DNA from: an uncultured virus (IMG/VR IMGVR_UViG_3300029955_000023)
Lineage: Duplodnaviria; Heunggongvirae; Uroviricota; Caudoviricetes
IMG/VR virus record: IMGVR_UViG_3300029955_000023
Strand: one strand, 5' to 3'
DNA length: 64,000 nucleotides
Shown here: positions 8,295-63,212 of the stretch, one piece after another
How positions within the stretch are numbered: position 1 is the stretch's first letter
Layout: each line of letters starts with the position of its first letter
Notes under the pieces: model-generated
What the model was told of the DNA's origin: nothing
The model's database searches: none
Seen by the model: the letters and a program-made list of their open reading frames with translations, nothing else
Program-made: the position numbers and the translations under genes

Positions 8295-10028
8295 TCAGCT
8301 ACGTCGGAAATCGACCCAACCCGCCGTCGACAAGTTCATGCTCGATCCGGCAGTCGCACATCGGACGCCGAGATGCGCGGATGCGTCGGTGAGCGGCATG
8401 TGAAATGCTAGCTCTACGCTGCCCGCCGACACGTCGGCGCCCGCGTTGGTCGTCGGCGACGGCGCGAGGTCCGGTTCGTCGGGGGAGACTAGATTACACG
8501 CCCCCGACGCCGCTCCGGGCGGCGTGAATCGCCCCGTCCAGGTGTTCTTAACGCCGGTCGGCGTGCTTAATGCATACAGCGTCCGCGTCGTCGTCGGCGT
8601 CAACCCATTGATGTCGAGGACCGGCGTCGTGAGCCACGCCTGTACCGAGCCGCCCGCCACCTCGTCGGCGGTGTATGGATTCGGCGCGCCCGCTCCGCTC
8701 GTCGTGAAGCTGAATATCCGACGCGTGTAGGCCTGATAACCGGATGGGCAGTTAGCCGGCAGGAACGTTCCCGGCGCGGTGCGCGAGGCGTAGGAGCCGT
8801 CGCCTGATGTGCCGTGGCAGTCGTACATGTGATACGTCGCCGACGCCGTCAGCGTCGTTCCATCGGCCGAGCCGTTGATCGCGTTGCCGTTGGTCACGGT
8901 CCACGACTTCGAGAGGGTCCAGCCGATATAAACGGTGTTGCTTTGGTCCGCCGCCGAGAGAGCGGAGATCGTCATGACGGCGGTGGTGCTAGTCCCCGAC
9001 ATGCCCGAAGGAAGTCCGCCGGTGATCGCCCAGGGCGTGATAAAGCCGTTTGGGATGCTCGCGCACTGAAACCCAACGTTTGTGACCCATTGAAGTAACT
9101 GGGAAGATGACGAGCACGAGGGCACCGACACGTCGGCCTTGTTCGCCGTCACGCCGGAGGCGTTGCCGACCACTGTGTTTCCAGCGGATTGGGCCAGACT
9201 GTCGTAGGCTATTGCATTGGCGGCGATATTGCCGTCGCCAATTGTGTTGGCGGCAATCTTCGATCCCGTCACAGCGCCGGCCGAGATCGTGGTCGCCGGA
9301 AGAGTTGAGCCAGCAAGGTCTCCGGTCAGCGTCCCCACGTTCGCCGCCGCCGCGCCGCTGGCCATCTTGCCTGACGTGACCGCGCCGCTCGCAATGGTCG
9401 TCGCCACTGTGCCTGCGGTGGACGTGACGTCGCCGGTCAGCGCGGGCATTTTCGTGGACGGAAGATTGCCGGGAATGGACGAGAATACGAGCGGGCCTCC
9501 GTCCGCGAGAAGCGTCCCACTCGTGTTATTCCATACAGCGAGGTCGCCTACCGTAGTTGTGCTCGGCCCGACCACGCCGGAGCCGGCGGTGAACGGAAAG
9601 CTGTAGGGGACGCCGTTGAGGATGAACGTAAACGGGAGCGCCGTCGCGAGGCCGCCCTTTCCATAGGACATGAGGCCGCCGCCGGCCGCGTTTGGGTCCA
9701 TACAGAAATAGTGGTAGCCCGTCGCATTGTTGGTAGGGGCGTCATACAGGCAGGCGTGTTCGCCGTTGGGGCCGTGGCCGGAATTAGCGGAAGGATAGGT
9801 ATTGGTCGGACTGCGCGAGGTTATCCCAATCTCGCCGGGGTTCGCCTTGAGACCGCCGCCGCCGGAACCGCCGCCGTCCTGCACAAGGGGCTGACTAGAG
9901 CCGGAGCCGGAATACATCGGCTGATGGCCGGGCGTGACAGGGCCTGCTTGCAAAAGAGACGACTGAGCAAGAGCAGGCGACGCCGCGACTAGGGCGACTA
10001 AGAACACCCAAAGGCGCGGAAATCGCAT
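8295..10028 (-). CDS. Fibre-like virion protein with signal-peptide-like N-terminus
   Basis: MRFPRLWVFLVALVAASPALAQ start; LTGDVT and TI.AGAVT..K fibre repeats; N-terminal ~180 aa shared with 48716-51667. Confidence 0.7.
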   Translation of the reverse strand: MRFPRLWVFLVALVAASPALAQSSLLQAGPVTPGHQPMYSGSGSSQPLVQDGGGSGGGGLKANPGEIGITSRSPTNTYPSANSGHGPNGEHACLYDAPTNNATGYHYFCMDPNAAGGGLMSYGKGGLATALPFTFILNGVPYSFPFTAGSGVVGPSTTTVGDLAVWNNTSGTLLADGGPLVFSSIPGNLPSTKMPALTGDVTSTAGTVATTIASGAVTSGKMASGAAAANVGTLTGDLAGSTLPATTISAGAVTGSKIAANTIGDGNIAANAIAYDSLAQSAGNTVVGNASGVTANKADVSVPSCSSSSQLLQWVTNVGFQCASIPNGFITPWAITGGLPSGMSGTSTTAVMTISALSAADQSNTVYIGWTLSKSWTVTNGNAINGSADGTTLTASATYHMYDCHGTSGDGSYASRTAPGTFLPANCPSGYQAYTRRIFSFTTSGAGAPNPYTADEVAGGSVQAWLTTPVLDINGLTPTTTRTLYALSTPTGVKNTWTGRFTPPGAASGACNLVSPDEPDLAPSPTTNAGADVSAGSVELAFHMPLTDASAHLGVRCATAGSSMNLSTAGWVDFRRS

Positions 10029-10053
10029 GGCCGTCTCCAAACAGGTAGGTTGA

Positions 10054-10239
10054 TTACTCGGTTCCGGCGTCGCTCGGCGGGGGCGGGGGCTCAACCGGCA
10101 TGGCGGCGATCTGCGCGATATAGAGCTTCGCGAGGTCGTGACCGGGCGTCAGAAGCTCCACCAGCTTGTTGAACTGCTCGTCGGTCAGGAACACGCCCTT
10201 GGGCGAGCGGTCCTCGTGCTGGTTCTGGAAGTGCGGCAT
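10054..10239 (-). CDS. Hypothetical protein
   Basis: MPHFQNQHEDRSPKGVFLTDEQFNKL...; tightly packed in the late operon. Confidence 0.55.
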   Translation of the reverse strand: MPHFQNQHEDRSPKGVFLTDEQFNKLVELLTPGHDLAKLYIAQIAAMPVEPPPPPSDAGTE

Positions 10240-37276: not shown

Positions 37277-37494
37277 CCAATATAGACGAAGCCTGCAAGA
37301 CGATGGATCGTGCGATTGCTGAGATCGCCGCCCTGCGCGCCAAGAATGAGGTTCTGCGGAAGGCGCTTGAATGCATCCTGCCGTACTTGCCTAAATCGAT
37401 GGCCAAGGACGACGGCCCCAACGCATTTTCCGGGCACGTCAAGGCTGCTGATACTGTCCGCGCCGCTCTCTCCACAACCAAGGAGCCGAAATGA
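37273..37494 (+). CDS. Hypothetical protein
   Basis: AAGGAG RBS; ends RAALSTTKEPK. Confidence 0.6.
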   Translation: MTNIDEACKTMDRAIAEIAALRAKNEVLRKALECILPYLPKSMAKDDGPNAFSGHVKAADTVRAALSTTKEPK

Positions 37495-37592
37495 GCGAAG
37501 CGCATGAGAAGCTGGCTGAGGAGCCCATCGAGCACCCGCTAAAAGAGATCGATACGCAGATTTATGTGTAACCCACCGCCCAGGAGAAAATA

Positions 37593-37940
37593 ATGAAAAT
37601 TCTACAATTCGAGACGGTTGCCGCCCAGGGCGAGCTTACGATCACGAAGTTGAAGAGAGCCCCAAATAACATCGGAATCCGCGTTGAGCCCGTTGATGGA
37701 AAACTGATCGTCGGCCATTCCGAAACGGGCCACCATCATGTCGTTGACGCCGAATGCGCGACGCTCACGCGGATCGATCAATTCACGGCGCTACTCGATG
37801 TGATCAAGATGACGCGGCTTGATCACCTGCGCGAGTGCGACACACATCCGAGCATCGCGTTACAGCCCGGAATGTACGAGTTCCGAACGGGTCGAGAGTT
37901 TGACCCTTTTGCTGCAACCATCCGCGCCAGCCAGGATTGA
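37593..37940 (+). CDS. His-rich small beta protein (partner of DUF6745-like), copy 1
   Basis: QGE...GHSETGHHH...H...I.L.PG.Y...REFDPF. Confidence 0.75.
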   Translation: MKILQFETVAAQGELTITKLKRAPNNIGIRVEPVDGKLIVGHSETGHHHVVDAECATLTRIDQFTALLDVIKMTRLDHLRECDTHPSIALQPGMYEFRTGREFDPFAATIRASQD

Positions 37941-37949
37941 GGAACTGCC

Positions 37950-39206
37950 ATGTTTGATATTGAGAAATATAAAGCAGCGTGCGTTTTTCCGGGTGAGATC
38001 GACGACTCTGCCGTGAAAATAGCGCTGGCGGGATATTGCGCCGCGCTCAAAATCGAGCGCGAGATTGTTAGAATCGAGAGAGGTTGGAAACTATCTGACT
38101 ATCCTGATCTCCAACGAACGATTGTGGAAATCGCCCGTGCCGCCCGTGACGCTCGTGACGCTCGTGACGCCCTTGCCGCCAGTGACGCCCGTGCCGCCCG
38201 TGACGCTCGTGACGCTCGTGACGCCCTTGCCGCCAGTGACGCCCGTGCCGCCCTTGCCGCCCGTGACGCCAGTGACGCCAGTGCCGCCAGTGACGCTCGT
38301 GACGCCCTTGCCGCCAGTGACGCCCGTGCCACCCGTGACGCTCGTGACGCCCGTGCCGCCCTTGCCGCCCGTGACGCTCGTGCCGCCCTTGCCGCCCGTG
38401 ACGCCAGTGCCGCCAGTGACGCTCGTGCCGCCCGTGACGCCAGTGACGCTCGTGCCGCCCGTGACGCTCGTGACGCCCGTGACGCTCGTGACGCCCTTGC
38501 CGCCCGTGCCGCCCGTGACGCCAGTGACGCTCGTGACGCCAGTGCCGCCCTACATCGTTTCGCGAAATGGTGCATCGCGCGTCAATATTGGTGGGATTGG
38601 GATTTATCGTTGATAAGCGAAATAAACGCCGGGGCTCATCAAATAAAAGAAAATCGCGTTATTGCGTGGTCTGATCCTATCTATGACGCTTTCTTGTCAG
38701 GGGCGTCTTTTCTATTTTGGACAGACAAGACGCTATATTGGGTTGCAAAACCGGATATTAAAACCGAAATTGTCAACGGCTCGCGACGTCTACATTGCGA
38801 GGACGGCCCCGCCGCTGATTTTGACAGTGAACCATTGTATTTTTGGCATGGAAACCTCGTTCCGAAACATTGGATCGAGGCCAAGAATGATCTGACCGCC
38901 GATGAGATATTCAAGGAAGACAACGCCGAGATCCGACGCGCTGGTTGCGAAATCATCGGATGGGATCGCGTGCTGTCTGGCATTGACGCGAAAATAGTTG
39001 ACACGGACGGAGACCCAATGATCGGCACGTTGTATCGAGGTCAAATACCCGGCGCGGTCGAATGCGGGTTCTTGAAAGTCTTGTGCGGGACAGGTCGTGA
39101 GTTCGTCATACCGGTATCGCCCGAGATTAATACCGCGATCAAAGCGCAAGCGTGGGTGCAAAATGTTTCCTTTGAGAAGTGGATGCGTCCGGAGGTTCGC
39201 GGATGA
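37950..39206 (+). CDS. DUF6745-like protein with tripeptide repeat tract, copy 1
   Basis: RLHCEDGPA...YFWHG..VP...NAEIRR...IG..R motifs; A-R/S/L-D/A repeats. Confidence 0.7.
38133..38546 (+). repeat. 46 x 9-bp coding minisatellite
   Basis: Units GCCCGTGAC, GCTCGTGAC, GCCAGTGAC, GCCCTTGCC and GCCCGTGCC. Confidence 0.9.
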
Positions 39207-40149: not shown

Positions 40150-40330
40150 CCATCAACACAAGCACGGAAGCGGTGAAGGCGGTTTCCATATTGGTGCGTA
40201 TGAGCGACCCAACCCCCAAGGAGCCGAAATGAGCGACGCGCATGAGAAGCTGGCTGAGGAGCCCATCGAGCACCCGCTAAAAGAGATCGATACGCAGATT
40301 TATGTGTAACCCACCGCCCAGGAGAAAATA

Positions 40331-40678
40331 ATGAAAATTCTACAATTCGAGACGGTTGCCGCCCAGGGCGAGCTTACGATCACGAAGTTGAAGAGAGCCC
40401 CAAATAACATCGGAATCCGCGTTGAGCCCGTTGATGGAAAACTGATCGTCGGCCATTCCGAAACGGGCCACCATCATGTCGTTGACGCCGAATGCGCGAC
40501 GCTCACGCGGATCGATCAATTCACGGCGCTACTCGATGTGATCAAGATGACGCGGCTTGATCACCTGCGCGAGTGCGACACACATCCGAGCATCGCGTTA
40601 CAGCCCGGAATGTACGAGTTCCGAACGGGTCGAGAGTTTGACCCTTTTGCTGCAACCATCCGCGCCAGCCAGGATTGA
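40331..40678 (+). CDS. His-rich small beta protein, copy 2
   Basis: Protein identical to 37593-37940. Confidence 0.75.
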   Translation: MKILQFETVAAQGELTITKLKRAPNNIGIRVEPVDGKLIVGHSETGHHHVVDAECATLTRIDQFTALLDVIKMTRLDHLRECDTHPSIALQPGMYEFRTGREFDPFAATIRASQD

Positions 40679-40687
40679 GGAACTGCC

Positions 40688-41944
40688 ATGTTTGATATTG
40701 AGAAATATAAAGCAGCGTGCGTTTTTCCGGGTGAGATCGACGACTCTGCCGTGAAAATAGCGCTGGCGGGATATTGCGCCGCGCTCAAAATCGAGCGCGA
40801 GATTGTTAGAATCGAGAGAGGTTGGAAACTATCTGACTATCCTGATCTCCAACGAACGATTGTGGAAATCGCCCGTGCCGCCCGTGACGCTCGTGACGCT
40901 CGTGACGCCCTTGCCGCCAGTGACGCCCGTGCCGCCCGTGACGCTCGTGACGCTCGTGACGCCCTTGCCGCCAGTGACGCCCGTGCCGCCCTTGCCGCCC
41001 GTGACGCCAGTGACGCCAGTGCCGCCAGTGACGCTCGTGACGCCCTTGCCGCCAGTGACGCCCGTGCCACCCGTGACGCTCGTGACGCCCGTGCCGCCCT
41101 TGCCGCCCGTGACGCTCGTGCCGCCCTTGCCGCCCGTGACGCCAGTGCCGCCAGTGACGCTCGTGCCGCCCGTGACGCCAGTGACGCTCGTGCCGCCCGT
41201 GACGCTCGTGACGCCCGTGACGCTCGTGACGCCCTTGCCGCCCGTGCCGCCCGTGACGCCAGTGACGCTCGTGACGCCAGTGCCGCCCTACATCGTTTCG
41301 CGAAATGGTGCATCGCGCGTCAATATTGGTGGGATTGGGATTTATCGTTGATAAGCGAAATAAACGCCGGGGCTCATCAAATAAAAGAAAATCGCGTTAT
41401 TGCGTGGTCTGATCCTATCTATGACGCTTTCTTGTCAGGGGCGTCTTTTCTATTTTGGACAGACAAGACGCTATATTGGGTTGCAAAACCGGATATTAAA
41501 ACCGAAATTGTCAACGGCTCGCGACGTCTACATTGCGAGGACGGCCCCGCCGCTGATTTTGACAGTGAACCATTGTATTTTTGGCATGGAAACCTCGTTC
41601 CGAAACATTGGATCGAGGCCAAGAATGATCTGACCGCCGATGAGATATTCAAGGAAGACAACGCCGAGATCCGACGCGCTGGTTGCGAAATCATCGGATG
41701 GGATCGCGTGCTGTCTGGCATTGACGCGAAAATAGTTGACACGGACGGAGACCCAATGATCGGCACGTTGTATCGAGGTCAAATACCCGGCGCGGTCGAA
41801 TGCGGGTTCTTGAAAGTCTTGTGCGGGACAGGTCGTGAGTTCGTCATACCGGTATCGCCCGAGATTAATACCGCGATCAAAGCGCAAGCGTGGGTGCAAA
41901 ATGTTTCCTTTGAGAAGTGGATGCGCCCGGAGGTTCGCGGATGA
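40688..41944 (+). CDS. DUF6745-like repeat protein, copy 2
   Basis: Protein identical to 37950-39206. Confidence 0.7.
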
Positions 41945-51667: not shown

Positions 51668-51816
51668 TTAGGTTTCTCGTGAGACCTGAGGGAATGTTGC
51701 GCGCGACCTGACTCGTGCCCAATGGGCTTGCCTTTGAACTCGACGCGCTGGGGCTTGCGCGGCTTGGGCGGCGGTCGGACGGCTTGATGGGCCGGGCTGG
51801 CGGGCGCGTCGGTCAT
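51664..51816 (-). CDS. Small basic hypothetical protein
   Basis: MTDAPASPAH...; ATGA overlaps on both sides. Confidence 0.45.
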   Translation of the reverse strand: MTDAPASPAHQAVRPPPKPRKPQRVEFKGKPIGHESGRAQHSLRSHEKPK

Positions 51817-54800
51817 TGGCCGACCCCGAGCTTCGCCATTTTTTGCCGCGTCGCGTCGGCCATGATCTGTGGATATTTCATGAAAAGCACCCCGCGCGCC
51901 GCCTCGCGGCTGTGTTCGACGATGGCCTTGACCGCATCGACGCGGACGCCAACGGGCCATTGACGCCAATCCGGTGAACGCACGAACACGTCGAGGCGCT
52001 GTTTCGCCATCCGGCCGGCGATGCGCGCGAAGTCATCATACTGCTGGTCTGTCAATTGCACATTTCGGATGGTTCGATCAACGGGGGCTATCCCGATCCC
52101 AAGTTGCGCGAGCGATATGTTCACCGGGTCTTGGCTCATCCGCTGTTCGTAAATCGCGGTGGCCCCGGCGGCGATCAGCGCATCGCGCGACGGAATCGGC
52201 TGGCCCCAAATGTCGAGACGCGGAAACAGTTCTTCCGACATGCCGGGAGTTTTGGCGCGGATCGAGTCCATGACCGTGCGGGCCTGCCGAGAGTATGGGT
52301 CGCTTGCGCGCGCCATCTGCGCCATGCCGACGCTATACGGCACGAAAGACGATGCGAAATTCTGGATATAACGCTCGCCATAGCGGCCTGGGTCTTCAAC
52401 GGCCTGGATCAGTTCGGCCGGCCCGCGCATGAACGACTCGTCCAGCACGTTTTGCGTGACCGCGTGCTGCATCAGCGCGGCGGCCTGCAGCATGTCGCCG
52501 GTCGACGCCGTGTGCGCCACGTCGTACAGATCGGCTGACATGCCGAGCAGCATCCCGAGCGGCCCGAGCCGGTTCATCGCATACCAAGTGTCTCCGATCC
52601 GAACGGAATGCGGCTGGTTTCCGGCCATGCGCCACATCGCGGCCTTGTTGCGATCCATCGGGCCAGAGCCGCTCACGTAGCCACTGGCGGCGAGCGAGCC
52701 GAAGCCAATCGACAGCGCCGTGCCGACGATCATGCGGGCCTGCGCCATGTCCTGCGCGGCGACGCCGTTGCGGCCCATCAGGTCCGCGCGGATTTCCGAC
52801 GACAGCAGGCCGGCGGGCGTCCGCTGCACGATGGACTGGTCGATGATATTCGCCGCGATGTGGACGAACGGGTCGATAAACTTGAGGATCGGCGTCTCGC
52901 CGAGGCCGGGCAGATTCGGAGCCCAATTGGTCAGTTTCGATAGGTGCTCGACGAACTTGCCGGCAGGCCCCATGAGCGTGAGGTCCGTCGCCCCCTTCGT
53001 CGAGGCCGACATGATGTCATCGGGCGTGTTCAATCGCAATTGCGCGATCTTCGCCGCGTCGCCTTCGGCCTGCCGGTAGATCAGCGCCGATTTCTCGATG
53101 CTGTAATTCATGGCTCGAAAAAAGGTGTGGATAGATGCGATGGCGCGGCTCGGCGCGCGCGCAAGCTGCCCGATCGGGATCACGCCCCCTCGAACCCGGA
53201 CGTCGAAGATAGCGCCCATCGGCGAATACATCGGCGCGGCGGTGCGCTCGCCGGCCGGCGTCGCCTCAAGCACCTTGCCTATGGCGAGCGCGCCGTCGAG
53301 CACTCCACGAAACGCGCCGAAGATCGCCGCCTTGGCGTCCGCGCGCGTCGCGCCCTCGTTCAGCATCTTGCCGGCCAGCGGGAGCGCCTGCTCCGGCTGA
53401 TAGGGGAGGGCACGCACCTTGTCTTGGCCGGGAAGCCGCCCGGTCAGGCCGGTGCGGAAAGCGTCGGCCGCCGCTGTGACCGCCGGGATATAGCCAGACG
53501 CCGCGCCGCGTAGTCTGGCCGCCACCTCGCCGAAGCGGACTACGTTCGAAGTGTCGCGACCCATTGGGCCGCGCAGCGCGCCCAGCGCGGCGGCTGTGGT
53601 GGTTTCGAGCAAGCCCTTCTGCATCGACAGGATCATGTTGCCGATCACGTAGGTTGTATGCGTCGCCGGGCCGGAGATCAGCCCGTTGATCCAGTATTCC
53701 AGCAACATGCGACCGAACGAATGCTTCGCGGTCGCGTCGGTCAGATAGGCGATGGCTTCCGGCGTCTCGTAGGCCGCCAACAGCTTCATCTCCTGCGTCT
53801 TTTGGTAGAGCGTGCGGCCGGTCGCCGCGAGCATCACCTTGTCGATATCGCCCTGCATCATGCGGAAGATGTTGAGCGCGCGGCCCGCCTCCGCCGTCGC
53901 GCCCATGATCGACTTAAGCACCATGTCGAGCCGGGCCTGTTCGGTCGCGAACGCCAGCACGCCTTCCGGCGACTCATCCTTGAGCCGCGAGATGCGCCCT
54001 ACCTCGTTGGCTTGGTCGGTCAATAGCTCCTTGAGCGCCACGATCTGCTCGGCGTTCATCGCTCGCCCGCGCACCCAGCCATCGACCAAATCGGCCGCGC
54101 CAAACTTACCCATCGCCGCGGCTAGTTCCTGCGTTTGCGCCCACGTCGTCGGCGCGCGGCGGTCGCCGATGAAGTCGCCATTCGCCTCGGAGCGCGCCTT
54201 GATCGCCGCCCACACGTCGTCGGCGACGTTGATGTTGGCGCGCTTGAAATTGCCCGCCTTGTCTACGTAGGGGGATTCTCCGTCCCCGATGAGCCTGACG
54301 GGCCGGGGGGCGAGGGGGGCATCCCTAAGAGGGTCGCTAGATTCGGGTCGTCCGCTGGCGGAGCCTCCGGCGGTGGGCTTGCCGACTTCTGCCGGAGCTG
54401 CATTTCCGCCTGCGCGCTCCTGGCCGCCTGCGCCGCCCATGACGCCGCCGCCGGACTGAGCCCCGGCTTGGCCGCCACCGCCGACCATTTCTGGTAATCC
54501 GACGTCGCCGCGTCCAACTTCTCCTGCGGCGTCGCCTCCTGGTCCTGCTGCTGCGGCTTCGACTTCTTGGACGGCTTGGGCGATTTCATCGGCGATCTCC
54601 GTCGGCGGTTGAGCGTCGTCAAAATGCGGCCGCTCGGCCTCGACCCGGTCGGCCGCGCCGCTCGCGTGTTCGTGCGGCGTCTGCTCGGCGGCTTCCGCGT
54701 GGAGGTCGTCGAGGCCGCGCCCCGGTTCCGCGTGCGGCGCGATCACCGTAGCGCGATCTTTCGTCTCGTGCATGTATTCGAACACGCTGCGTAGCGCCGG

Positions 54801-57800
54801 ACTGATTTCTACGTTCAGGCCCTCCACCCGATCGTAGAGAGGGAGCATCCAGTCGCGGAACATCTTGAACACGCCGTCGAGCGCGCGCGTCGGCGCGGTT
54901 CCCTCGTAAAGCCAGCGCATGTAGCCGTTGGCGAACTTCTCGTGCGCCTTGGTCGAGATCACGTTGTCCGCGCCAACGCCTGTTTCGCGCTTGGCAACCT
55001 CCCACATATCGCGCATCCGTTGCGGCGCTTCAGGATGTGCGGCGTCGCGCTTGAGCATCTCGAAGAAATCGTGGCCGAGTTCGTGGATCGCCGTCGTCGC
55101 GTTGGCAATTTTCATCAACGTGATGATCGACCGCTGGCCGAGCCGCAAGAGGATGCGGCCGAACTGGCTCTGCTCAAGCTTGCGCTCGTCCTCATCTGGC
55201 TTCTCGGCTTCAATGGCCTGCGGAGCCTTTGACGGGTCTTTCGGCTTCAAGTCCTCCGTCAGCGCGGCCAGCTTCGCAGCCGCTTCGGCGTATTCCGCTT
55301 GGCGCGGCCATGTCGCCGCCGCTGCCTTCGACAGCGTGTCGTATTCTTTCTGGTTCCCCGCGATCTGCGCCTCGACGCGATCCGCCTGCGCCTTGATCTC
55401 CGCGAGCAACCCGGTGAACTTCGCCATCAGGCCGACCGGATCAGTCTCGCTGTTGATGATGAACTCGTTCGGGCTGGCGTAAAGGCTATTTCCCTCAAGC
55501 TGTAGCTTGCCGACGGTGATGATGTTTTCCTCTTGCGACGCGCCGCCGTAGGAATAGCTGCGCCTCAATTCGATGCTGGCCGGGAAGCCGCCAATCTCGC
55601 CGAAGTTAAGTGCGCGGGCGCTATGGCTCAATTGCGGAGCAATCCGCAGCACGCCGTCACGCACCTTCTCGCCGGCTGCTTTCCGGTCCGTGAGCGTGGT
55701 CCCGTCGCTCAACGTGATCTTGAACTTGTCGCCGCGAATGTCCTGCACGCGCTCGGAATCCTCTTTCGCAGGCGCAAGGTTCCGCTTCAATTCTTCAATG
55801 TGAGATTGCAGGCCCTTCACCTGCCACGTCGCACGCTGCTTGGTCTGGTCGAAACCGCGCTTTTGCGCCGTCAGTTGCCGCACCTGCCGCGTCAGTTCGG
55901 CGTGCTGCATGATGCGCGGGTCGCCGGAGGCCGCCGCCTTGAGCATCTCGGCCTCGGGCAACGGGTTGTCGATGTCCTCGGCGACGCGGACGCCCTTCGA
56001 TCCGCTGTTGACCTGCCCGATGAACTTCGCCTTGCGCTCTAAAAGCTGCCAGCGCGTCGCGTCCAGCGACCGTTCGGTGATGTAGCGCAGGATATGGACC
56101 TCTTTGTTGAGGTTGCCTTGGCGCAAAATGCGCCCATCGCGCTGTTCGATCTCCGCCGGCTTATGTGTCGGGTCCATGTGGTGCATGGCGATCAGGCGCT
56201 TCTGCGCGTTGGTGCCGACGCCCATCTTTTCCGTCGAGCCGATCAGCACGCGCGTCACGCCGTCATTCATGCGCGCGAATAGGGCGCGCTTCTTCTCATC
56301 GCTGTCGGCGTCGTGGATGAACTCGATCTCCTTGCGCGGGATACCTTCGGCCACAAGCCGCTGGCGCATGTCCTCGTAAAGATTGATCGGTGGCGGCTTC
56401 CCGGCCGCGCTCTCGTCCTTCGGGACCACGGTGCGCAGCGCCTTCTGCTCGGCCTTGGTCAGATCGCCCCACGAACGCTGCCAGTCGCGGTCCTCAATGT
56501 TCTTCGTCGATCCCGCCGCGCGCGCCCAATCCATGCGCTCGTCGCCGGTCACGGCGTCCCAAGTCGCGGCGTAGCCTTCATCGCTCTCGGCGACCCTGGC
56601 CTTGGGCGTGCCGCGATCCATGAACACCATCTGCGAGCGCGCGTTCGGATCGTCCTTGTAGCGGTCGTATATGTCTTTGATGTTCTTGACCGCGAGCGCG
56701 ATTTTGCCGTTCGGGTTGAACTCCATCGGCTTCGGCACCGCAAAGCCCATGATGTCGCCGTCGCGCAGCAAGCGCCCGTCGAGCGCGGCCTTGTTCCCGG
56801 CCCCCATGAGCGACAGCGTGTTGTCCTCGCCCTTCTCGCGCCGCAGGCCCTTGATCTCGGCGAGGCGCTCCACGATGCGCCGCACGGCGGCTTCCTCGTG
56901 CTCGGAAAGCTGCGCGGTGTGAACTTCGATCCCCGGCTTGCCGTCGCGCGTCATCAACGCCGGGCGTGGCAGGTTCAACTGCTCGGCCGATTGCGAGTCG
57001 GCGATCTCGGAATAGAGCGAGATCAACTCGGGAATGTTGACGAACTTCGAGAACGACGTGACGTCTTTGATCGACCTCCCGTCGGGAGCCATCTCGGGCT
57101 GCGTCACCACCTTGCCGAAGGTGTTGCCCCAAGCGTCGAACTTATCCAACCCGCGCTCTTTGAGCTTGTCGAGTTGCAGATAGCGCATCATGGTCCAAAG
57201 CTCGGCCATGCTGTTCGACATCGGCGTGCCGGTCGCGAAGATCGCCGAGCGCCCAGGCTTGCGCTGCTCGAGGTAGCGAATCTTCATAAACAAGTCCTCC
57301 GACCGCTGCGAGGCGGCGGAGGAAAGCCCGCGAATGTTCGAGTAGCGCGTCGGGAAGGCAAGGTTTTTGAACAGGTGCGCCTCATCGACGATCACTTGGT
57401 CAATGCCCGATTCCTCGAATGTCGTTCCCTCGTCCTTCACTTCGTCGTTCAACAGTTTTTGCAGTCGGGCGTTCATCTTCTCCATCGCGCTTTCAAGCTG
57501 CTTGACGGTGCGCGACTTCTTTGTTTCCCCCGCCGCACGATCCGCCGCCTGCTGCGCTTTAAGCGCTTCGCGATATTCCGCAAGCTGGTCTTGGATGAAT
57601 TGGCCTTGCGTTTCGCTCGATACGCCGATGCGTCCGAACGCGCTGTGCGTGAAGATCACGGCGTCCCAATCGTTCGAGGCGGTTTTGGCTACAAACGCGC
57701 GGCGCGCGTCGGGCGACATCTCGTCCTTGTTCGCCACTAGGATGTTGGCGTCAGGATAGGCCTGAATGAACTCGGTCGAGAATTGGTCGAGCATGTGGTT

Positions 57801-60800
57801 CGGGACGGCCACGCAAGGCTTTTGAATAAGTCCCAGCCGCTTTTGCTCCATCGCCGCCGCTATCATCGTTACGGTCTTACCGCTCCCGACCGCGTGCGCG
57901 AGCAGCGTGTTGCCCTTCTGCAAGATGCGCCAGACCGCGTTCTTTCGGTGCGCGCGGTCGGTGAACATCGGATTGAGGCCCGGTAGCGTCAGGTGCGAGC
58001 CGTCGGCCTTCCATTGCACCAGATCGTTCATGGTCCGATTGTAGACGCCCTCAAGCAATTCGCCGCGCTGCTGGTCCGCGAACGCCCAAGGCTCCACGCC
58101 CTTGTCAGGGTCGCCGGAGAACATCGAGCGGATTTCCTCGATCTTCGCCGCGACTTCTTCTGTCTTGGCTTGGTTCACAACGCGCGTGTCGCGGTCGATC
58201 TGGTCATAGACCGTGATCTGATTGTTGTTGAACGCCGCCTTCATGATCGACTTGAGAGTGACGTCAGATCGACCGACGCCCCATTTCGTCTCTGCCGATG
58301 GCTTGAAGCGGTCAGCCTCGACGCGCCATTCCTTGTTGACCGGCAGCAATTCGACCTTCGGATTGACCGCGCCCAATTCCTTGAGGAAGTCGGCGTGGAC
58401 CTGCGCGGGTATCCACGGTGCGCCCAACTGCGCCGTGATGTCTACGGCTGTCAGCAGGGGCGGCTGCACCTTTTCGAGCGCCGCGACGTTGCGCGCATAG
58501 GTCGGATCGGTCGCGGCGATGGCGCGCGCATCTTCCAACTTCTTGATGACGGTTCCCGACAGGTATTGATCGGCGGATTCCCATTCGCGCCCGTTCGGGT
58601 TCTGGTAGATCAGGTCGCCCAAGCGCGCGACAACCTCGTCCTCGTCCTTCGCTCCCATAAGCTTACCGATCTCTTGCAGATCGACCTTGCCTTGGGTGTC
58701 AAGCACGGACGCCAGCGCGTCGGCGGAACTGTTGATCTTGCGGTCCACCGGCGCGGCGATGACGTCCTTGGTCTGGATCGCGGCGCGCGTCGCCGTATCC
58801 TTCTCAGGATCGTAATTCTCAATGGACGCAACCTTGTAGACGTCGGGGTCGTCGCGGAATTCCTCGAAGTTCGGATGCTTGATGCGAACCTGCGGGTTGC
58901 CGTCAGCGTCCAGCTTCTTCGAGACGATCTTAACCTCTTTGCGGATCGGGCCGTGTTTCGCCACGAACTCGTCGTAGGCGTCGCGCAGCGCCTCGCGCAG
59001 CTTCTCGGCGTCGCCGCCCTTGCCGAGTTGCGCCTTGAGCAGATCGTTGTAGATGTCGCGTATGCCGATCAGCTTCGACACGCGCGCAACGGTCTCCGGC
59101 GACATTTTCTGCGGCTCGCCAATGCCCTGAACGCGCCGGTAAATCTGGCCGTCTTTGAGAGCGTATCCGCCTTCTTTGACGTCCATTCCCATGTCGTCGC
59201 GATTGATGGTCGGCGGCGGCGGCGTGGCGCGCTTGGTGAAAGCGCCGGGCGGCATTTTTCCCGCCGCCTCGCCGATCTTGGCGCGCAAATCGTCCGGCTC
59301 GCCCATCAGCACGGGCTCGTTCGCTCCATACATCGAGCCTTTCAGCCGCATTTCGCCGAGCATCATGTCGGGGCGGTCGGCGAAATACTCGTTGATGTGC
59401 GTCGGGCCTTCCGGCGTCTGGATTTCCTTCGTGTCCATCCAGTCCGCGCTCGCGAACGGAGCCTCGCCCGGAATCTTCTTGCGCAGGAAGATAATGTCGG
59501 TCGTGACTTCTGTTCCAGCGTTGCCGGCGAATGCGCCCTCCTTGCCGCCTGGCAAGCGGATCGCGCCCACAAGATCGGCGTCTTTCGCCAGCCGCGCGCG
59601 CACGTCCGAATTGGCCTTGTCCATCGTCCCCTTGGACGTGATGAACGCCACCACGCCGCCAGGGCGAACCTTGTCGAGCGACTTCACAAAAAAGAAATCG
59701 TGGATCAGGTGAGTGCCGTGCGGCTTCTCCGTCAGCGAATAGCTGCCGAACGGCACGTTGGAGATCGCGAGATCGTAATAGTTCGACGGGCGCTTGAGCG
59801 TCTCGAAGCCCTGATTGTTGACCTCCGCGCCGCCGTATAGCGCCTTGGTGATGCGGGCGGACAGCGGGTCAAGTTCAACAGCGGTCCATGACGTGCGCGG
59901 CGCGACGCTATCGGGAATGAGACCGATGAAATGGCCGATGCCGGCCGACGGCTCGATGGCCTCGCCGCCCTTGTAGCCGAGCGCCGTCAGCGCATCCCAC
60001 ATGCCCTTGACGACTTCCGGCGACGTATAGTGCGCGTTCTTCGTCGAAGCGCGCGCGGCGGCGTATTCCTCGTTGGTGACGAGAGCGCGAAACGCCTTGC
60101 GCTCCGCCTTGAACTCATCCTGCCGGTCGGCATTGAACATCTTTTCAGAGAACGCGCCCCAGCCGGTGTATTTGACCAGCTTCGCCTTTTCCTCTTGCGT
60201 CGCCTCGCGCGCCTCGTCCTCGATCAGCTTGAGCGTCTTGATCGCGTCGATGTTCGCCCGAATCTTCGCCTTCGGGCCGCCCTCGCCGATGGCGTCGGCG
60301 TCGGTGATGCGATAGTTCGCGCGCGACCGCTCCGCGATCTTTTGGCGCGCTTCTACTCGTCCTGCGGCTGCGGCGTCGGTTGATGGATCAGGTCGTGCCT
60401 GATCAGTTCCGTCAGAGCTTCTTGGTGGCCCGCTAACACTTTCTCCCTCGCCAACTGGTCCAAGTCCCTCGTCTCGTCGAGCTTCTTGAACATTTCGTGG
60501 TTCATCGTCTCCGCCGCCGACTCCCCCACCGAGGTCAGTCGTGCTTGGAGTTTGCCGGATTGGCTTAGGCTCCGGTGCAGGCGTGGGTGATTCGCTTTCA
60601 GGAAGCTCTCGTGCTCCGCCGCGAACCGTCTCTCCATCGCGTCCATAATCGACACTCCATTCCGGCGCGCTCGCCCAGGCGTCATCGAACAACTTGAGCG
60701 CCCGATCCATCACGTCGCGGTAGATCGCGGTATCAGCCGGGTCGACCGATTCTTTCAGCCGCTTCACCGGCTGTCGCATCTCGTGCGCCTCGTCCATAAC

Positions 60801-63212
60801 CCGCATCACGGGCTCAGGGACAAGCTGCAACTCCGCCGACATGCCGTCGCCAAGGCCTATTTGCAAGTGGATGGCGCGATAACCTTCCTTGCCCGGACGA
60901 ATAAAGTCCTCGGCCTCGATTATTGCGCCCGTTGCCTTGATTTTGTCGAGAATGGCGTCTAGGTTTTGAACGTGGTCGACAACGATACGCGCGCCGAGAT
61001 AGTCGGATATCGTGTTCGGGTTCCGCCTCTTCGCCGACAATTTGAGTTCGAGGCCCGGCAAGTCCTTTGCCCGCGCCCCATACACGCGCGCGCCGTCGAC
61101 GCCCTTGACTAGCTCGTTAAGCCTGTCGAGAAGCTTCGGCTTGTTTTCCTCGGCGGCGGCCAGCAGCGCCTTGTAGTCGCTTGATCCTTGAATTATCTTC
61201 TTACCGGAGGCTTGGTCGATGTCCCCCAACGAAAAATCGGTGAAGCGCGTAATCTCTGGCCCCTCGAAGATCGACGGCGGCATCTGCCGCATGGTCGAGC
61301 TTTCCGACGGCTCCGCGCGCTGCGAATCCTGGATCAAAGGCTCGGGCTGGGAGGAAGGCGGCTGCTTCCCTTCCGAGTTCATGTTCGCGCCGCCGGTCTC
61401 CTCGGAGCTTGCCTCGCGGATGGGCTGTCCCACTTCCGAGCTTTCCAAGGTCTGAACCGGCTCGGGCTCGGGTTCCGGCTCCGGCGCTTCCGCGATCTGC
61501 TCCTTTGCGATCGCATCGACGTCCGGCTCCGGGGATGCCGCGCGCCGTTGCGCCTCCGCCTCGGCCTCCGCCGGCACGACGGGCAACTCAGGCGGCAGCT
61601 CGACCGACGCGACCACTTCCGGCCCGGTCTTGGCGCGCTTTCCGCCCACGCGGCGCACCTTGCCGTCCTCGCCTCTGATATCCGCGCCCTCGCGGCGATA
61701 GATTTCCTCCGGCGTTCCGATCTTGCCCTCGAACGCCTCCGAGCGCGCGGCCATGCGCGACGCCACGATGTGCCCCAGCGCCTCGGCTTCATCCGGCGGG
61801 CGTCCGGCGCTGATGAACTGGCGCTTGGCGTCGTCAACGATGGCCTGCAGGTCGCCGCCGCCGGCCGCCGCCTCGCCCTCCGGCGCGACCATCGCCCCGC
61901 CGACCTTCTCCGCCGCGCGCCGGTGCGCCGCGCTGATCTCTGGCGCGATGTCCGCAATCTTGGCTTCTACGGCGGTAACTTGCGCGTCGAGCGCGCCGTC
62001 GTGCGGCAATTCGTCGGCGGCCTTCACGAGCGCGTCGCGCTGCGCGGTCAACGCCTCATATTCGCGGAACGCCTCGACGTGCGCGTCGCGCGCGAGCGGA
62101 GCCGGGTTCGGCAGTTCAGCCGTCCCGACGGTCGCTTGTTCCTCGCGCTGCGCGGCCTGCGCGGCCTGCTCCACGGCGGGCGGAGATTCCTCGTCGCCCA
62201 TGAACGTCTTTTCGGTGCGAGCCGGGCCGCCCACGCCAAGCGCCCAGGCGTCGGTCAGCGTGGGGGGCCGCTCGCCATAAACGTAGTTTGCGTCGACGTC
62301 GGCCAGCGTGTGTTCTGGTCCGGCTGGCGGTTCGGTCACGGCTCCGTAAATGCCGCCCACGTCGTAATCCTGTCGCCCCCGGAACCGCTGACCTTGTTCC
62401 TCGAATGGCGGTTCTTGGGGTTTCAGCCCCATCACGTCATGTGCGGTAGTTCGCCCGAGCAAGCGCGGAATGATGCCCTCTATGGCCTCTCCGAAGCGAT
62501 TTGGCTTGTTGAACACCAGACCGAAGCCGGTCGAGATCGCGACCTTGTTCCAATCGACGTCGCCCTCGGCCGCCTCTTGCCCCAACTCCATGCCGCCCAT
62601 CAACGCGCCGCTGAATAGCCGCTGCGTCGCCGGATTGACCATTAGACGTTGGAGCGCGGTCGAGTTCTCCGGCAGTTTCGCCGCCGCTGAAAAACCGCCC
62701 GGTTTCATCGTCAGCGCGAACGGAGCCATGCCGCCGAGAAATGTCGCGTAGGGGTGCTGCTCTTGGTCGAGGCGCTGCTGGCGCTCGTCTTGGCCTATCG
62801 ACTCCACCCACGAATCCGGCAGCTTCGACAGGCCGTAATCCTGAGCCTTCTCAGCCGCGAACGATCCGCCGAACCCGCCGATCAAGCCGCCAGCAACGCC
62901 GCCGACCAATTCGGAAATGCCGGTTTCGCCGAGGCCTGGGACCAGAGCGCCCGCCGCCGCGCCGTAGGCCGCGCCCGCTCCTGCGCCAGCGAGACCGCCC
63001 GCCGCCGGGAGCGCGCCGCGCGCCGCGCCTCGCGTGAACGCGCCGGACGTTGATGAGCCTGTCGGGTCGACGGTCTGGCCATTCAGCAGTTTCGCGAACG
63101 GGTCGTTCTCGTCATCGGCAGGCGGCGGCGCGGCCTGATAGCGCAGCGGCTGGTCGCCGCCGCCTAAGACGCCCGCAAACGGATCGGCAACTTGACCATC
63201 GGCATCGGCCAT
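51813..63212 (-). CDS. DarB-like giant polyvalent virion protein (RelA/SpoT + N6-adenine MTase + SNF2 helicase + HExxH zincin-like + C-terminal LPD-like)
   Basis: RelA/SpoT ~61180-60660 (RAK..., SDYLGARIV, KEGYRAIH, ELQL); MTase ~60320-59250 (EPSAGIG, SNVPF); helicase ~57990-55900 (HAVGSGKT, DEAH, TGTP, QRDGRILRQGN); HELGH near 55080. Confidence 0.9.
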   Translation of the reverse strand: MADADGQVADPFAGVLGGGDQPLRYQAAPPPADDENDPFAKLLNGQTVDPTGSSTSGAFTRGAARGALPAAGGLAGAGAGAAYGAAAGALVPGLGETGISELVGGVAGGLIGGFGGSFAAEKAQDYGLSKLPDSWVESIGQDERQQRLDQEQHPYATFLGGMAPFALTMKPGGFSAAAKLPENSTALQRLMVNPATQRLFSGALMGGMELGQEAAEGDVDWNKVAISTGFGLVFNKPNRFGEAIEGIIPRLLGRTTAHDVMGLKPQEPPFEEQGQRFRGRQDYDVGGIYGAVTEPPAGPEHTLADVDANYVYGERPPTLTDAWALGVGGPARTEKTFMGDEESPPAVEQAAQAAQREEQATVGTAELPNPAPLARDAHVEAFREYEALTAQRDALVKAADELPHDGALDAQVTAVEAKIADIAPEISAAHRRAAEKVGGAMVAPEGEAAAGGGDLQAIVDDAKRQFISAGRPPDEAEALGHIVASRMAARSEAFEGKIGTPEEIYRREGADIRGEDGKVRRVGGKRAKTGPEVVASVELPPELPVVPAEAEAEAQRRAASPEPDVDAIAKEQIAEAPEPEPEPEPVQTLESSEVGQPIREASSEETGGANMNSEGKQPPSSQPEPLIQDSQRAEPSESSTMRQMPPSIFEGPEITRFTDFSLGDIDQASGKKIIQGSSDYKALLAAAEENKPKLLDRLNELVKGVDGARVYGARAKDLPGLELKLSAKRRNPNTISDYLGARIVVDHVQNLDAILDKIKATGAIIEAEDFIRPGKEGYRAIHLQIGLGDGMSAELQLVPEPVMRVMDEAHEMRQPVKRLKESVDPADTAIYRDVMDRALKLFDDAWASAPEWSVDYGRDGETVRGGARELPESESPTPAPEPKPIRQTPSTTDLGGGVGGGDDEPRNVQEARRDEGLGPVGEGESVSGPPRSSDGTDQARPDPSTDAAAAGRVEARQKIAERSRANYRITDADAIGEGGPKAKIRANIDAIKTLKLIEDEAREATQEEKAKLVKYTGWGAFSEKMFNADRQDEFKAERKAFRALVTNEEYAAARASTKNAHYTSPEVVKGMWDALTALGYKGGEAIEPSAGIGHFIGLIPDSVAPRTSWTAVELDPLSARITKALYGGAEVNNQGFETLKRPSNYYDLAISNVPFGSYSLTEKPHGTHLIHDFFFVKSLDKVRPGGVVAFITSKGTMDKANSDVRARLAKDADLVGAIRLPGGKEGAFAGNAGTEVTTDIIFLRKKIPGEAPFASADWMDTKEIQTPEGPTHINEYFADRPDMMLGEMRLKGSMYGANEPVLMGEPDDLRAKIGEAAGKMPPGAFTKRATPPPPTINRDDMGMDVKEGGYALKDGQIYRRVQGIGEPQKMSPETVARVSKLIGIRDIYNDLLKAQLGKGGDAEKLREALRDAYDEFVAKHGPIRKEVKIVSKKLDADGNPQVRIKHPNFEEFRDDPDVYKVASIENYDPEKDTATRAAIQTKDVIAAPVDRKINSSADALASVLDTQGKVDLQEIGKLMGAKDEDEVVARLGDLIYQNPNGREWESADQYLSGTVIKKLEDARAIAATDPTYARNVAALEKVQPPLLTAVDITAQLGAPWIPAQVHADFLKELGAVNPKVELLPVNKEWRVEADRFKPSAETKWGVGRSDVTLKSIMKAAFNNNQITVYDQIDRDTRVVNQAKTEEVAAKIEEIRSMFSGDPDKGVEPWAFADQQRGELLEGVYNRTMNDLVQWKADGSHLTLPGLNPMFTDRAHRKNAVWRILQKGNTLLAHAVGSGKTVTMIAAAMEQKRLGLIQKPCVAVPNHMLDQFSTEFIQAYPDANILVANKDEMSPDARRAFVAKTASNDWDAVIFTHSAFGRIGVSSETQGQFIQDQLAEYREALKAQQAADRAAGETKKSRTVKQLESAMEKMNARLQKLLNDEVKDEGTTFEESGIDQVIVDEAHLFKNLAFPTRYSNIRGLSSAASQRSEDLFMKIRYLEQRKPGRSAIFATGTPMSNSMAELWTMMRYLQLDKLKERGLDKFDAWGNTFGKVVTQPEMAPDGRSIKDVTSFSKFVNIPELISLYSEIADSQSAEQLNLPRPALMTRDGKPGIEVHTAQLSEHEEAAVRRIVERLAEIKGLRREKGEDNTLSLMGAGNKAALDGRLLRDGDIMGFAVPKPMEFNPNGKIALAVKNIKDIYDRYKDDPNARSQMVFMDRGTPKARVAESDEGYAATWDAVTGDERMDWARAAGSTKNIEDRDWQRSWGDLTKAEQKALRTVVPKDESAAGKPPPINLYEDMRQRLVAEGIPRKEIEFIHDADSDEKKRALFARMNDGVTRVLIGSTEKMGVGTNAQKRLIAMHHMDPTHKPAEIEQRDGRILRQGNLNKEVHILRYITERSLDATRWQLLERKAKFIGQVNSGSKGVRVAEDIDNPLPEAEMLKAAASGDPRIMQHAELTRQVRQLTAQKRGFDQTKQRATWQVKGLQSHIEELKRNLAPAKEDSERVQDIRGDKFKITLSDGTTLTDRKAAGEKVRDGVLRIAPQLSHSARALNFGEIGGFPASIELRRSYSYGGASQEENIITVGKLQLEGNSLYASPNEFIINSETDPVGLMAKFTGLLAEIKAQADRVEAQIAGNQKEYDTLSKAAAATWPRQAEYAEAAAKLAALTEDLKPKDPSKAPQAIEAEKPDEDERKLEQSQFGRILLRLGQRSIITLMKIANATTAIHELGHDFFEMLKRDAAHPEAPQRMRDMWEVAKRETGVGADNVISTKAHEKFANGYMRWLYEGTAPTRALDGVFKMFRDWMLPLYDRVEGLNVEISPALRSVFEYMHETKDRATVIAPHAEPGRGLDDLHAEAAEQTPHEHASGAADRVEAERPHFDDAQPPTEIADEIAQAVQEVEAAAAGPGGDAAGEVGRGDVGLPEMVGGGGQAGAQSGGGVMGGAGGQERAGGNAAPAEVGKPTAGGSASGRPESSDPLRDAPLAPRPVRLIGDGESPYVDKAGNFKRANINVADDVWAAIKARSEANGDFIGDRRAPTTWAQTQELAAAMGKFGAADLVDGWVRGRAMNAEQIVALKELLTDQANEVGRISRLKDESPEGVLAFATEQARLDMVLKSIMGATAEAGRALNIFRMMQGDIDKVMLAATGRTLYQKTQEMKLLAAYETPEAIAYLTDATAKHSFGRMLLEYWINGLISGPATHTTYVIGNMILSMQKGLLETTTAAALGALRGPMGRDTSNVVRFGEVAARLRGAASGYIPAVTAAADAFRTGLTGRLPGQDKVRALPYQPEQALPLAGKMLNEGATRADAKAAIFGAFRGVLDGALAIGKVLEATPAGERTAAPMYSPMGAIFDVRVRGGVIPIGQLARAPSRAIASIHTFFRAMNYSIEKSALIYRQAEGDAAKIAQLRLNTPDDIMSASTKGATDLTLMGPAGKFVEHLSKLTNWAPNLPGLGETPILKFIDPFVHIAANIIDQSIVQRTPAGLLSSEIRADLMGRNGVAAQDMAQARMIVGTALSIGFGSLAASGYVSGSGPMDRNKAAMWRMAGNQPHSVRIGDTWYAMNRLGPLGMLLGMSADLYDVAHTASTGDMLQAAALMQHAVTQNVLDESFMRGPAELIQAVEDPGRYGERYIQNFASSFVPYSVGMAQMARASDPYSRQARTVMDSIRAKTPGMSEELFPRLDIWGQPIPSRDALIAAGATAIYEQRMSQDPVNISLAQLGIGIAPVDRTIRNVQLTDQQYDDFARIAGRMAKQRLDVFVRSPDWRQWPVGVRVDAVKAIVEHSREAARGVLFMKYPQIMADATRQKMAKLGVGQ
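54263..54589 (-). CDS. Candidate nested gene (alternate frame, 108 aa)
   Basis: GGAG 7 nt before ATG 54589; spans a Gly-rich linker of the giant protein. Confidence 0.45.
   Translation of the reverse strand: MKSPKPSKKSKPQQQDQEATPQEKLDAATSDYQKWSAVAAKPGLSPAAASWAAQAARSAQAEMQLRQKSASPPPEAPPADDPNLATLLGMPPSPPGPSGSSGTENPPT
60353..60646 (-). CDS. Nested TnpV-like gene (alternate frame, 97 aa)
   Basis: GGAG 8 nt before the ATG; H..FLK.NHP.L...L..SGKL...L..V.E.A...E.IRHDLI resembles the TnpV family. Confidence 0.65.
   Translation of the reverse strand: MDAMERRFAAEHESFLKANHPRLHRSLSQSGKLQARLTSVGESAAETMNHEMFKKLDETRDLDQLAREKVLAGHQEALTELIRHDLIHQPTPQPQDE
61219..61455 (+). CDS. Nested antisense gene (78 aa), candidate antitoxin of the RelA/SpoT domain
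   Basis: GGAGG at 61206-61210, ATG at 61219; globular-looking sequence while the host frame is Ser/Pro/Glu-rich. Confidence 0.6.
   Translation: MSPNEKSVKRVISGPSKIDGGICRMVELSDGSARCESWIKGSGWEEGGCFPSEFMFAPPVSSELASRMGCPTSELSKV

Follow-up and report, generated by a model that had tools for sequence, protein, structure and literature searches.

The 64,000-nucleotide (nt) stretch of DNA studied here (referred to as the window; IMG/VR record IMGVR_UViG_3300029955_000023, from an uncultured member of the Caudoviricetes) carries a giant gene for a polyvalent DarB-like virion protein, inside which lie three short open reading frames (ORFs), two in another frame of the same strand and one on the opposite strand. 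We consider it probable that the three ORFs are genuine small genes, that their frames are older than that of the giant ORF, and that the latter overprinted them into linkers between its domains; they may also act as partners of those domains. In other words, a single piece of DNA appears to encode two proteins simultaneously. Conservation, openness of both frames, composition, and start signals are established by the comparisons described below, and on these grounds the nested genes would be expressed, independently initiated, and functional. The features concerned are as follows (lengths in amino acids [aa]; coordinates of nested genes include the stop codon).

60353..60646, minus strand: nested gene 1, TnpV-like, 97 aa, in the +1 frame of the host, with a match to Pfam TnpV
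60655..60658, minus strand: GGAG Shine-Dalgarno (SD)-like motif, 8 nt upstream of the TnpV-like ATG at 60646
61219..61455, plus strand: nested gene 2, antisense, 78 aa, its third codon positions coinciding with those of the host
61206..61210, plus strand: GGAGG SD motif, 8 nt upstream of the ATG at 61219
54263..54589, minus strand: nested gene 3, 108 aa, in the +1 frame of the host
54597..54600, minus strand: GGAG SD-like motif, 7 nt upstream of the ATG at 54589
51813..63212, minus strand: host gene for the polyvalent DarB-like virion protein, a single ORF of 3799 codons
60648..61292, minus strand: RelA/SpoT-like (small alarmone synthetase-like) domain, host aa 641-855, with the Pfam RelA_SpoT match at aa 714-797
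55167..60494, minus strand: DarB-like methylase plus SNF2-helicase core, host aa 907-2682, with matches to phrog_10089, phrog_11801, SNF2-rel_dom, ResIII, and Helicase_C
54666..55298, minus strand: HELGH-containing host segment upstream of the nested 108-aa gene, host aa 2639-2849, matching phrog_9880

The original prediction had placed three ORFs wholly inside the giant gene, each with an SD motif 7 to 8 nt ahead of its ATG and each over a low-complexity host linker beside an enzymatic domain, and all of this was borne out at the coordinates listed. Relative to the host, the two sense ORFs are read in the +1 frame, and the third (61219..61455, plus strand) is antisense to it. The ATG at 60646 is internal to a longer ORF (60353..60685, minus strand, 110 aa), as is the ATG at 54589 (54263..54622, minus strand, 119 aa from a TTG). 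GGAG or GGAGG precedes all three starts, against a background of such motifs before 17 of the 160 ATGs on the sense strand of the gene and 9 of the 151 on its antisense strand. Across the three ORFs, 65 to 74% of the host translation is G, P, A, S, T, E, or R, and these linkers flank the RelA_SpoT match on both sides and follow the HELGH segment. The antisense ORF lies opposite host aa ca. 586 to 665, at the 5′ edge of the RelA/SpoT-like domain; the TnpV-like gene covers host aa ca. 856 to 953, that is, the linker between this domain and the DarB-like core; and the 108-aa gene lies over a Gly-rich linker that follows the HELGH segment and leads to the C-terminal module.

The number of nested ORFs is at chance level, which counts against our interpretation. 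Alternate-frame ORFs of at least 60 aa in the giant gene number 28 when started by ATG (52 when GTG and TTG are allowed), compared with 29.3 ± 3.0 expected from 300 synonymous shuffles, and 13 of the 28 reach or exceed the length of the longest flagged ORF. Antisense ORFs of 475 aa (56313-57740), 615 aa (57993-59840), and 476 aa (61188-62618), all on the plus strand, lie within the same gene when GTG and TTG starts are allowed; they have no Pfam match and are within the shuffle expectation for a gene rich in guanine and cytosine (GC). Counts and lengths would therefore fit three chance ORFs of a GC-rich gene, devoid of coding function. We regard this explanation as extremely improbable, since it is already contradicted by the Pfam TnpV matches, an unbiased screen, and the GC signature. 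Among the 52 alternate-frame ORFs, only one (60356-60685) has a Pfam match (E ≤ 0.01), namely, to TnpV, and the remaining 51 have none. Arginine accounts for 2 to 8% of the residues in the three flagged ORFs versus 20 to 30% in each of the 12 other sense alternate-frame ORFs examined; the latter are arginine rich while the host reading is protein-like, a relation that is reversed at the flagged ORFs. Moreover, homologue families were found for all three, two of the products gave confident folds (see below), and only at these ORFs does similarity in the nested frame exceed that in the host frame, with a flip in GC by codon position at the two sense ones.

The screen covered 11 giant genes, whose alternate-frame segments of 50 aa or more (1046 in total) were each compared with all the others and ranked by the alternate-frame score minus the host-frame score over the same bases. 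The TnpV-like gene came out on top (up to +85), followed by a fourth family (+26 to +46), then by the 108-aa gene (+25) and finally the antisense gene (+20), while every other segment scored +11 or less. Along similar lines, GC contents at host codon positions 1, 2, and 3 are 0.66, 0.46, and 0.80 over the whole giant gene, 0.80, 0.65, and 0.37 over the TnpV-like gene, and 0.84, 0.64, and 0.61 over the 108-aa gene, so that at both sense nested genes it is the nested frame that carries the usual signature of coding sequence. When 370 GC windows were ranked, the top 12 all fell on these two ORFs, and the flip was repeated in seven of seven TnpV-like relatives and in two of two relatives of the 108-aa gene.

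The TnpV-like product is the one with a known family. In the window, it matches Pfam PF14198 with 27.3 to 27.7 bits (E = 2.8e-6), which is borderline with respect to the gathering cutoff of 27 bits, and the match spans positions 25 to 93 of the 111 in the profile, leaving the N-terminal part unmatched, compared with positions 1 to 111 for classical members of 129 to 131 aa. All five of the nested translations scanned matched Pfam TnpV, the best with an E value of 5e-12. The protein has 86 database homologues, most of them already labelled PF14198, and the public gene calls start at the same residue. An AlphaFold2 model based on a 51-sequence alignment has four helices and a predicted local distance difference test (pLDDT) score of 92.6. 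Foldseek found no match for this model in the PDB (best E, 1.8) and thus no structural support for an Xis-like fold, and a wide VIA-align fold search was also negative (best Z, 4.0); such nulls do not show that a fold is new.

Relatives were collected from viral contigs, metagenomes, and metagenome-assembled genomes (MAGs) using both the flanking host protein and the nested protein as queries; alignments A1 and A6 had no stretch conserved enough for scanning, and the narrower A2 and A7 were used. At 10 of 14 distinct loci, the TnpV-like gene is nested in the +1 frame with both frames open (the window, L003, L004, L005, L007, L011, L017, L022, L025, and L027); the host ORF is open for 1167 to >5000 codons and the nested frame for ca. 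87 to 180 codons, with a common end point. A fifteenth match, L028, was judged false and excluded. Sequencing frameshifts creating a false giant ORF were ruled out, as the arrangement was seen in 10 independent assemblies. Host translations over the gene are dissimilar low-complexity strings, whereas the nested translations align well (amino acid identity of 44% in the nested frame versus 36% in both the host frame and the third frame). Every copy has an ATG 10 to 15 codons before a conserved EHxxFL motif, and an SD-like motif precedes eight of nine starts, compared with the background of 17/160 for sense-strand ATGs.

Composition and conservation over the two sense nested regions favor the nested frame, and the host reading there looks off-frame, as it would if the giant ORF were not one protein but a set of separate modules plus small genes, with an incidental continuity of frame 0. 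We consider this very improbable. The host frame has no stop in any of the 11 giant genes examined (1167 to 5394 codons), and it is open across the TnpV-like gene in every intact relative. In synonymous shuffles that kept the TnpV protein and, conservatively, the local codon usage, the host frame was open in 0.21 to 0.75 of the trials per sequence; because the product of these fractions over nine sequences is only ca. 1e-4, the host frame is also kept open by selection.

Searches beyond these relatives were largely negative. No match to the window TnpV-like protein was found by tblastn among named phages, and a search with P0022 returned only the classical Firmicutes-type TnpV, in four unannotated gut phage contigs and two plasmids; no cultured phage with the nested arrangement was found in these phage searches. 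Among the 21 large window ORFs scanned with PHROGs, none was a recombinase.

The 108-aa gene belongs to a family of similarly short proteins. A HMMER scan of 1.84 billion representatives gave 83 matches at E ≤ 1e-3 and 12 at E ≤ 1e-10, mostly of 90 to 125 aa and aligned end to end, and a 19-sequence alignment showed a common MKS start and a conserved core (KW..VAAxPGLSP..AAWA..ARSA.AE..LRQKA); the family has no Pfam match. The gene is nested in the +1 frame in L046 and L047 as well, with host ORFs open for 2322 and 1448 codons, respectively. In the window and L046, it ends just ahead of a host VDKAGN segment; over the gene, the two are identical at 65/96 positions when read in the nested frame, compared with 40/96 for the host frame and 50/96 for the third. 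L047 retains the gene although its host protein has no BLASTP similarity to that of the window. An SD-like motif plus an ATG at the conserved N terminus is found in two of the three copies (in L046, GGAGG 6 nt upstream). The linker that holds the gene is not shared by the relatives G002 to G005, and a search with the host protein around it found no other viral relative.

For the two sense genes, a programmed +1 ribosomal frameshift could give truncated products, with the N-terminal modules fused to a TnpV-like or 108-aa tail, and no separate genes. Such a mechanism would agree with the position of both ORFs in the host +1 frame on the same mRNA and with database proteins of 220 to 426 aa that have other domains upstream of the TnpV-like domain in one frame. 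We find it improbable, given the ATG and SD-like motif at the conserved N terminus in eight of nine TnpV-like copies and two of three copies of the 108-aa gene. In addition, the nested frame has a stop merely 6 to 43 codons upstream of the ATG, which leaves little room for a conserved shift site, and the mechanism does not apply to the antisense gene.

The antisense ORF calls for caution, because its frame is the richest in spurious ORFs (14 seen versus 15.7 expected). L003 has the same antisense ORF with the same MSPN start and, at the position of the GGAGG, the purine-rich GGTGGAAGGG; identity between the two is 62.7% in the antisense frame versus 57% in the host frame. The family has 8 database homologues, all called proteins, and 10 members in all. 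An AlphaFold2 model from the 10-sequence alignment reached a pLDDT of 83.3; Foldseek found no match to it in the PDB (best E, 0.6). No match was found in Pfam or PHROGs, and hence none to a known antitoxin family. No further relatives were found in viral contigs, including a scan of viral sequences with P0191, a database protein described below; nor were any found in the 3 genomes containing L025 to L027 or in 401 sampled genomes of one class, both of these searches being without a positive control genome.

Conservation and openness of this ORF might be a by-product of host-frame selection, through shared wobble positions in a GC-rich gene, with the ORF itself not being a gene. Consistent with this, identity over the whole alignment of the window and L003 averages 0.545 in the antisense frame versus 0.618 in the host frame, and a search of the ESM Atlas with the protein returned no match that could be used. 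Since the antisense protein has no Tyr, His, or Gln, the host frame cannot gain a stop under any codon choice, but the same lack is expected opposite a disordered host linker without Tyr, Cys, or Trp; across the family core, there are 6 Tyr, His, or Gln among 674 residues, which is compatible with either dual coding or such a linker. Nevertheless, we hold this explanation to be unlikely. In a sliding comparison of the window and L003, the antisense gene provides the top 4 of 227 windows for antisense-minus-host identity and is the sole region where antisense identity exceeds host identity. Residues W38, W44, F54, D19, and E53 are invariant in all 10 family sequences, and these are the ones that host-synonymous wobble changes would flip. 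The confident model and the strong GGAGG 8 nt before the ATG point the same way, as does P0191, in which an antisense-family domain (56% identity; E = 2e-25) and a TnpV-like domain are joined in one ORF. Altogether, selection at the protein level on the nested frame is indicated at all three sites, with a weaker signal at the antisense ORF.

P0191 (221 aa) has a TnpV-like N terminus, and its C terminus belongs to the family of the antisense gene. Between the two is a stretch similar to what the host frame encodes over the fourth-family region in G004 (…LPSQxSPLGFEEEAIRAQQPT…). Such a composition suggests a rearranged or frameshifted small-gene cluster.

The fourth nested family was found in relatives only and is absent from the window. 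It comprises proteins of ca. 60 aa in the +1 frame with their own ATG and SD-like motif (L040, 8053-8244; L041, 7851-8048; L019, 9404-9595; L022, 6072-6245; L025, 168-356) and with the consensus ..FPTAAALVxARAxKRxAGKYGDLGLARAAK..NRQSVLS; it has no Pfam match. In relatives with Zeta_toxin and ddrB-ParB modules, it lies 0.3 to 1 kb upstream of the TnpV-like gene, and in the proteins P0186, P0187, and P0188, its motif stands in frame ahead of the TnpV-like domain.

The host gene lies in a tailed-phage genome, with PHROGs matches in the window to a major head protein, protease, head-tail adaptor, tail proteins, endolysin, and exonuclease VIII. The host protein consists of an N-terminal region, the RelA/SpoT-like domain, the methylase-SNF2 helicase core, the HELGH segment, and a C-terminal internal-virion-protein-like module. 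The Pfam matches are RelA_SpoT (a nucleotidyltransferase domain; borderline, with 27.4 bits against a cutoff of 27), SNF2-rel_dom/ResIII (aa 1753-1960), and a weak Helicase_C, and those in PHROGs include phrog_10089 (“DarB-like antirestriction”; aa 907-2682) and phrog_6651 (“internal virion protein”; aa 3439-3683). The protein thus combines in one polypeptide the methylase and SNF2/DEAD helicase core and the extra effector domains that define polyvalent proteins. The phrog_6651 match at the C terminus and the location among tail genes are indirect pointers to a giant protein that may be packaged in the virion and delivered into the host cell. The HELGH motif is visible in the host translation, and the segment is also present in L046 and G002. 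The RelA/SpoT-like domain is 60% identical between the window and L003. Giant genes of relatives carry additional Zeta_toxin, ddrB-ParB, InPase, and intein domains. The nearest record, G001, is near-identical to the window and uninformative for comparison.

Each of the small genes is located at the 5′ edge of one module, namely, the RelA/SpoT-like domain (antisense gene), the methylase-helicase core (TnpV-like gene), or the C-terminal virion module (108-aa gene). The original prediction was that effector modules had been captured together with their partner genes and that the host ORF reads through the latter. The read-through part of this proposal is supported by the conserved homologues of all three ORFs, by the joint openness of nested and host frames in diverged relatives (10/14 loci for the TnpV-like gene, 3/3 for the 108-aa gene, and 2/2 for the antisense gene), by the GC signature of the nested frame at the two sense ORFs, and by stand-alone TnpV elsewhere; none of the outcomes named beforehand as contradicting the prediction was encountered. 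The link between the TnpV-like gene and RelA/SpoT did not hold. This gene tracks the methylase-helicase core instead, staying at its 5′ edge in relatives in which the upstream modules are Zeta_toxin and ddrB-ParB; because it keeps this place where RelA/SpoT is lacking, we rejected it as a RelA/SpoT partner. The antisense ORF, for its part, occurs in both of the giant genes with RelA/SpoT and in none of the other giant genes examined. A predicted complex of its product with the RelA/SpoT-like domain scored 0.54, compared with 0.00 for the best control (runs of 0.00, 0.54, and 0.56; contact agreement of at least 41%; partner pLDDT of at least 74). Of 157 solved complexes, 116 reached the mark for this score, as did 2 of 215 mismatched pairs; only 18 of the 157 complexes, together with both passing mismatches, reached it with a score of ≤0.60. 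The model therefore weakly suggests that the antisense product may bind the RelA/SpoT-like domain. From their positions, we infer that the small proteins could be dedicated partners of the adjacent modules, each as a neutralizer, chaperone, or regulator.

Beyond the chance-level number of ORFs, several observations weigh against three genuine genes with partner roles. All relatives are uncultured metagenomic contigs. Four of the 14 TnpV-like loci are not intact: in L021, L023, and L024, both frames are interrupted, and L026 has a remnant that is truncated at the N terminus and not surrounded by a giant ORF. Nucleotide differences are spread almost evenly over the TnpV codon positions (0.41, 0.37, and 0.44), which fits dual constraint and gives no clean single-frame signal. 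The failure of the TnpV-like gene to track RelA/SpoT speaks against the partner role originally proposed for it, and no fold or family match points to a function for any of the three nested proteins. The DNA comparison for the 108-aa gene rests on three lineages, and all six of the family members examined are on contigs of 508 to 5317 nt, which give no view of the context; the giant gene is probably cut there. For the antisense gene, the DNA comparison rests on only two lineages, a transition/transversion test had four usable sites, and conservation is partly inherited, since the frame shares wobble positions with the host; the only promoter-like site is weak (9/12 match; 60976-61003, plus strand) and not near the ATG at 61219.

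A few further observations concern the relatives and the rest of the window. The L026 remnant (9725-10210) lies on a 206-kb contig of an alphaproteobacterial MAG and may be a decayed prophage or element. In G003, the second half of the giant ORF (L040, 11658-19295) contains at aa 59 to 401 an Intein_splicing match (E = 7.1e-11) that splits the helicase part, and the giant genes of G003 and G004 terminate in an InPase domain. Within the window, 37478-37777 and 40216-40515 form a direct duplication with a spacing of 2738 nt and a reported 100% identity across 300 nt. It holds two 418-aa ORFs (37950-39206 and 40688-41944), for which PHROGs gave no match and whose interior consists of 9-nt periodic repeats (78 overlapping copies, in register).

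Genes embedded in others are familiar in phages, for example, Rz1 within Rz of lambda and the overlapping genes of phiX174. Viral overprinting, too, is a known kind of arrangement, and in the classical cases, the embedded frame is the novelty. Our case is similar in that the whole of one gene, start included, is contained in another gene read in a different frame and one of the two products is of low complexity or disordered. Here, however, the embedded frames appear to be the older ones, having stand-alone homologues and the native GC signature, and the novelty lies in the linker of a fused giant protein; furthermore, one host gene contains several unrelated small genes, one of them antisense. 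Toxic small alarmone synthetases are known from toxin-antitoxin pairs, which resemble the present case in having a small gene adjoining a RelA/SpoT-like domain, with a binding that is weakly suggested here by the predicted complex. The small gene is nested antisense rather than being an operon neighbor, and it matches no known antitoxin family.

TnpV of Tn4451 has been “postulated to be involved in excision” by its likeness to lambda Xis (PMC3158075). Like TnpV of Tn4451/Tn4453 and clostridial elements (PF14198), the nested protein is a small helical member of this family found in mobile elements. Classical tnpV is a stand-alone gene beside a large serine recombinase of the TnpX type on a transposon or integrative and conjugative element, whereas the gene described here is shorter (97 aa), has no recombinase beside the inspected loci, and lies wholly inside another gene in its +1 frame. 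In a Subdoligranulum plasmid (L029, 757-9270), a 1989-aa N6_Mtase plus SNF2 gene is followed by a gene for a large serine recombinase, the stop of which is overlapped by the start of a stand-alone tnpV. This tnpV is within 2.2 kb of the 1989-aa gene, so that TnpV and methylase-helicase giants are connected in an unrelated lineage as well.

Iyer et al. (2017; PMC5512222) have described the polyvalent proteins that phages and conjugative elements encode, among them DarB of phage P1. The host protein is of the same kind, that is, a giant multidomain virion-associated protein with a methylase, an SNF2-type helicase, and effectors such as the RelA/SpoT-like domain. The main text of that paper refers neither to TnpV nor to overlapping genes, frameshifts, alternative frames, or internal starts, and genes nested in linker-coding stretches are thus not part of the description given there. 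No paper dealing with genes inside polyvalent or DarB-like genes came up in literature searches. New here would be the direction of overprinting, in which the linker is the more recent reading, as well as how many unrelated genes are nested together and the fact that one of them is antisense.

According to the reading that we favor, the small gene would be the older coding frame at each site, and the giant ORF would have crossed it out of frame or on the other strand, in what amounts to gene fusion across resident genes, the overprinted reading supplying the low-complexity interdomain linker of the host. The giant protein would be translated from its own start, the TnpV-like and 108-aa genes most likely from the internal SD motif and ATG on the same mRNA, and the 78-aa protein would be made from an antisense transcript. 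More tentatively, and with somewhat less than an even chance in our estimation, polyvalent giants in general may be built by out-of-frame or opposite-strand read-through of small genes between modules, with the small genes surviving as separately translated partners (neutralizers, chaperones, or packaging factors); four unrelated nested families are already present in this clade.

If the nested genes are real, several conserved, foldable proteins, one of them of a known Pfam family, would be dual coded with the linkers of a giant injected protein, and they would include a rare well-supported candidate for an antisense nested gene. Overprinting across resident genes is suggested as a route by which polyvalent proteins gain linkers, and candidate partners can be named for the RelA/SpoT-like, DarB-like, and virion modules. 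Because gene callers forbid fully nested genes, such proteins are invisible in annotated phage genomes; the GC-by-codon-position flip, together with nested-frame similarity exceeding that of the host frame, provides a recipe for detecting more of them. Should the general view also be true, it would mean a recurrent route to polyvalent proteins and a hidden layer of small phage proteins beyond the annotation of gene callers.

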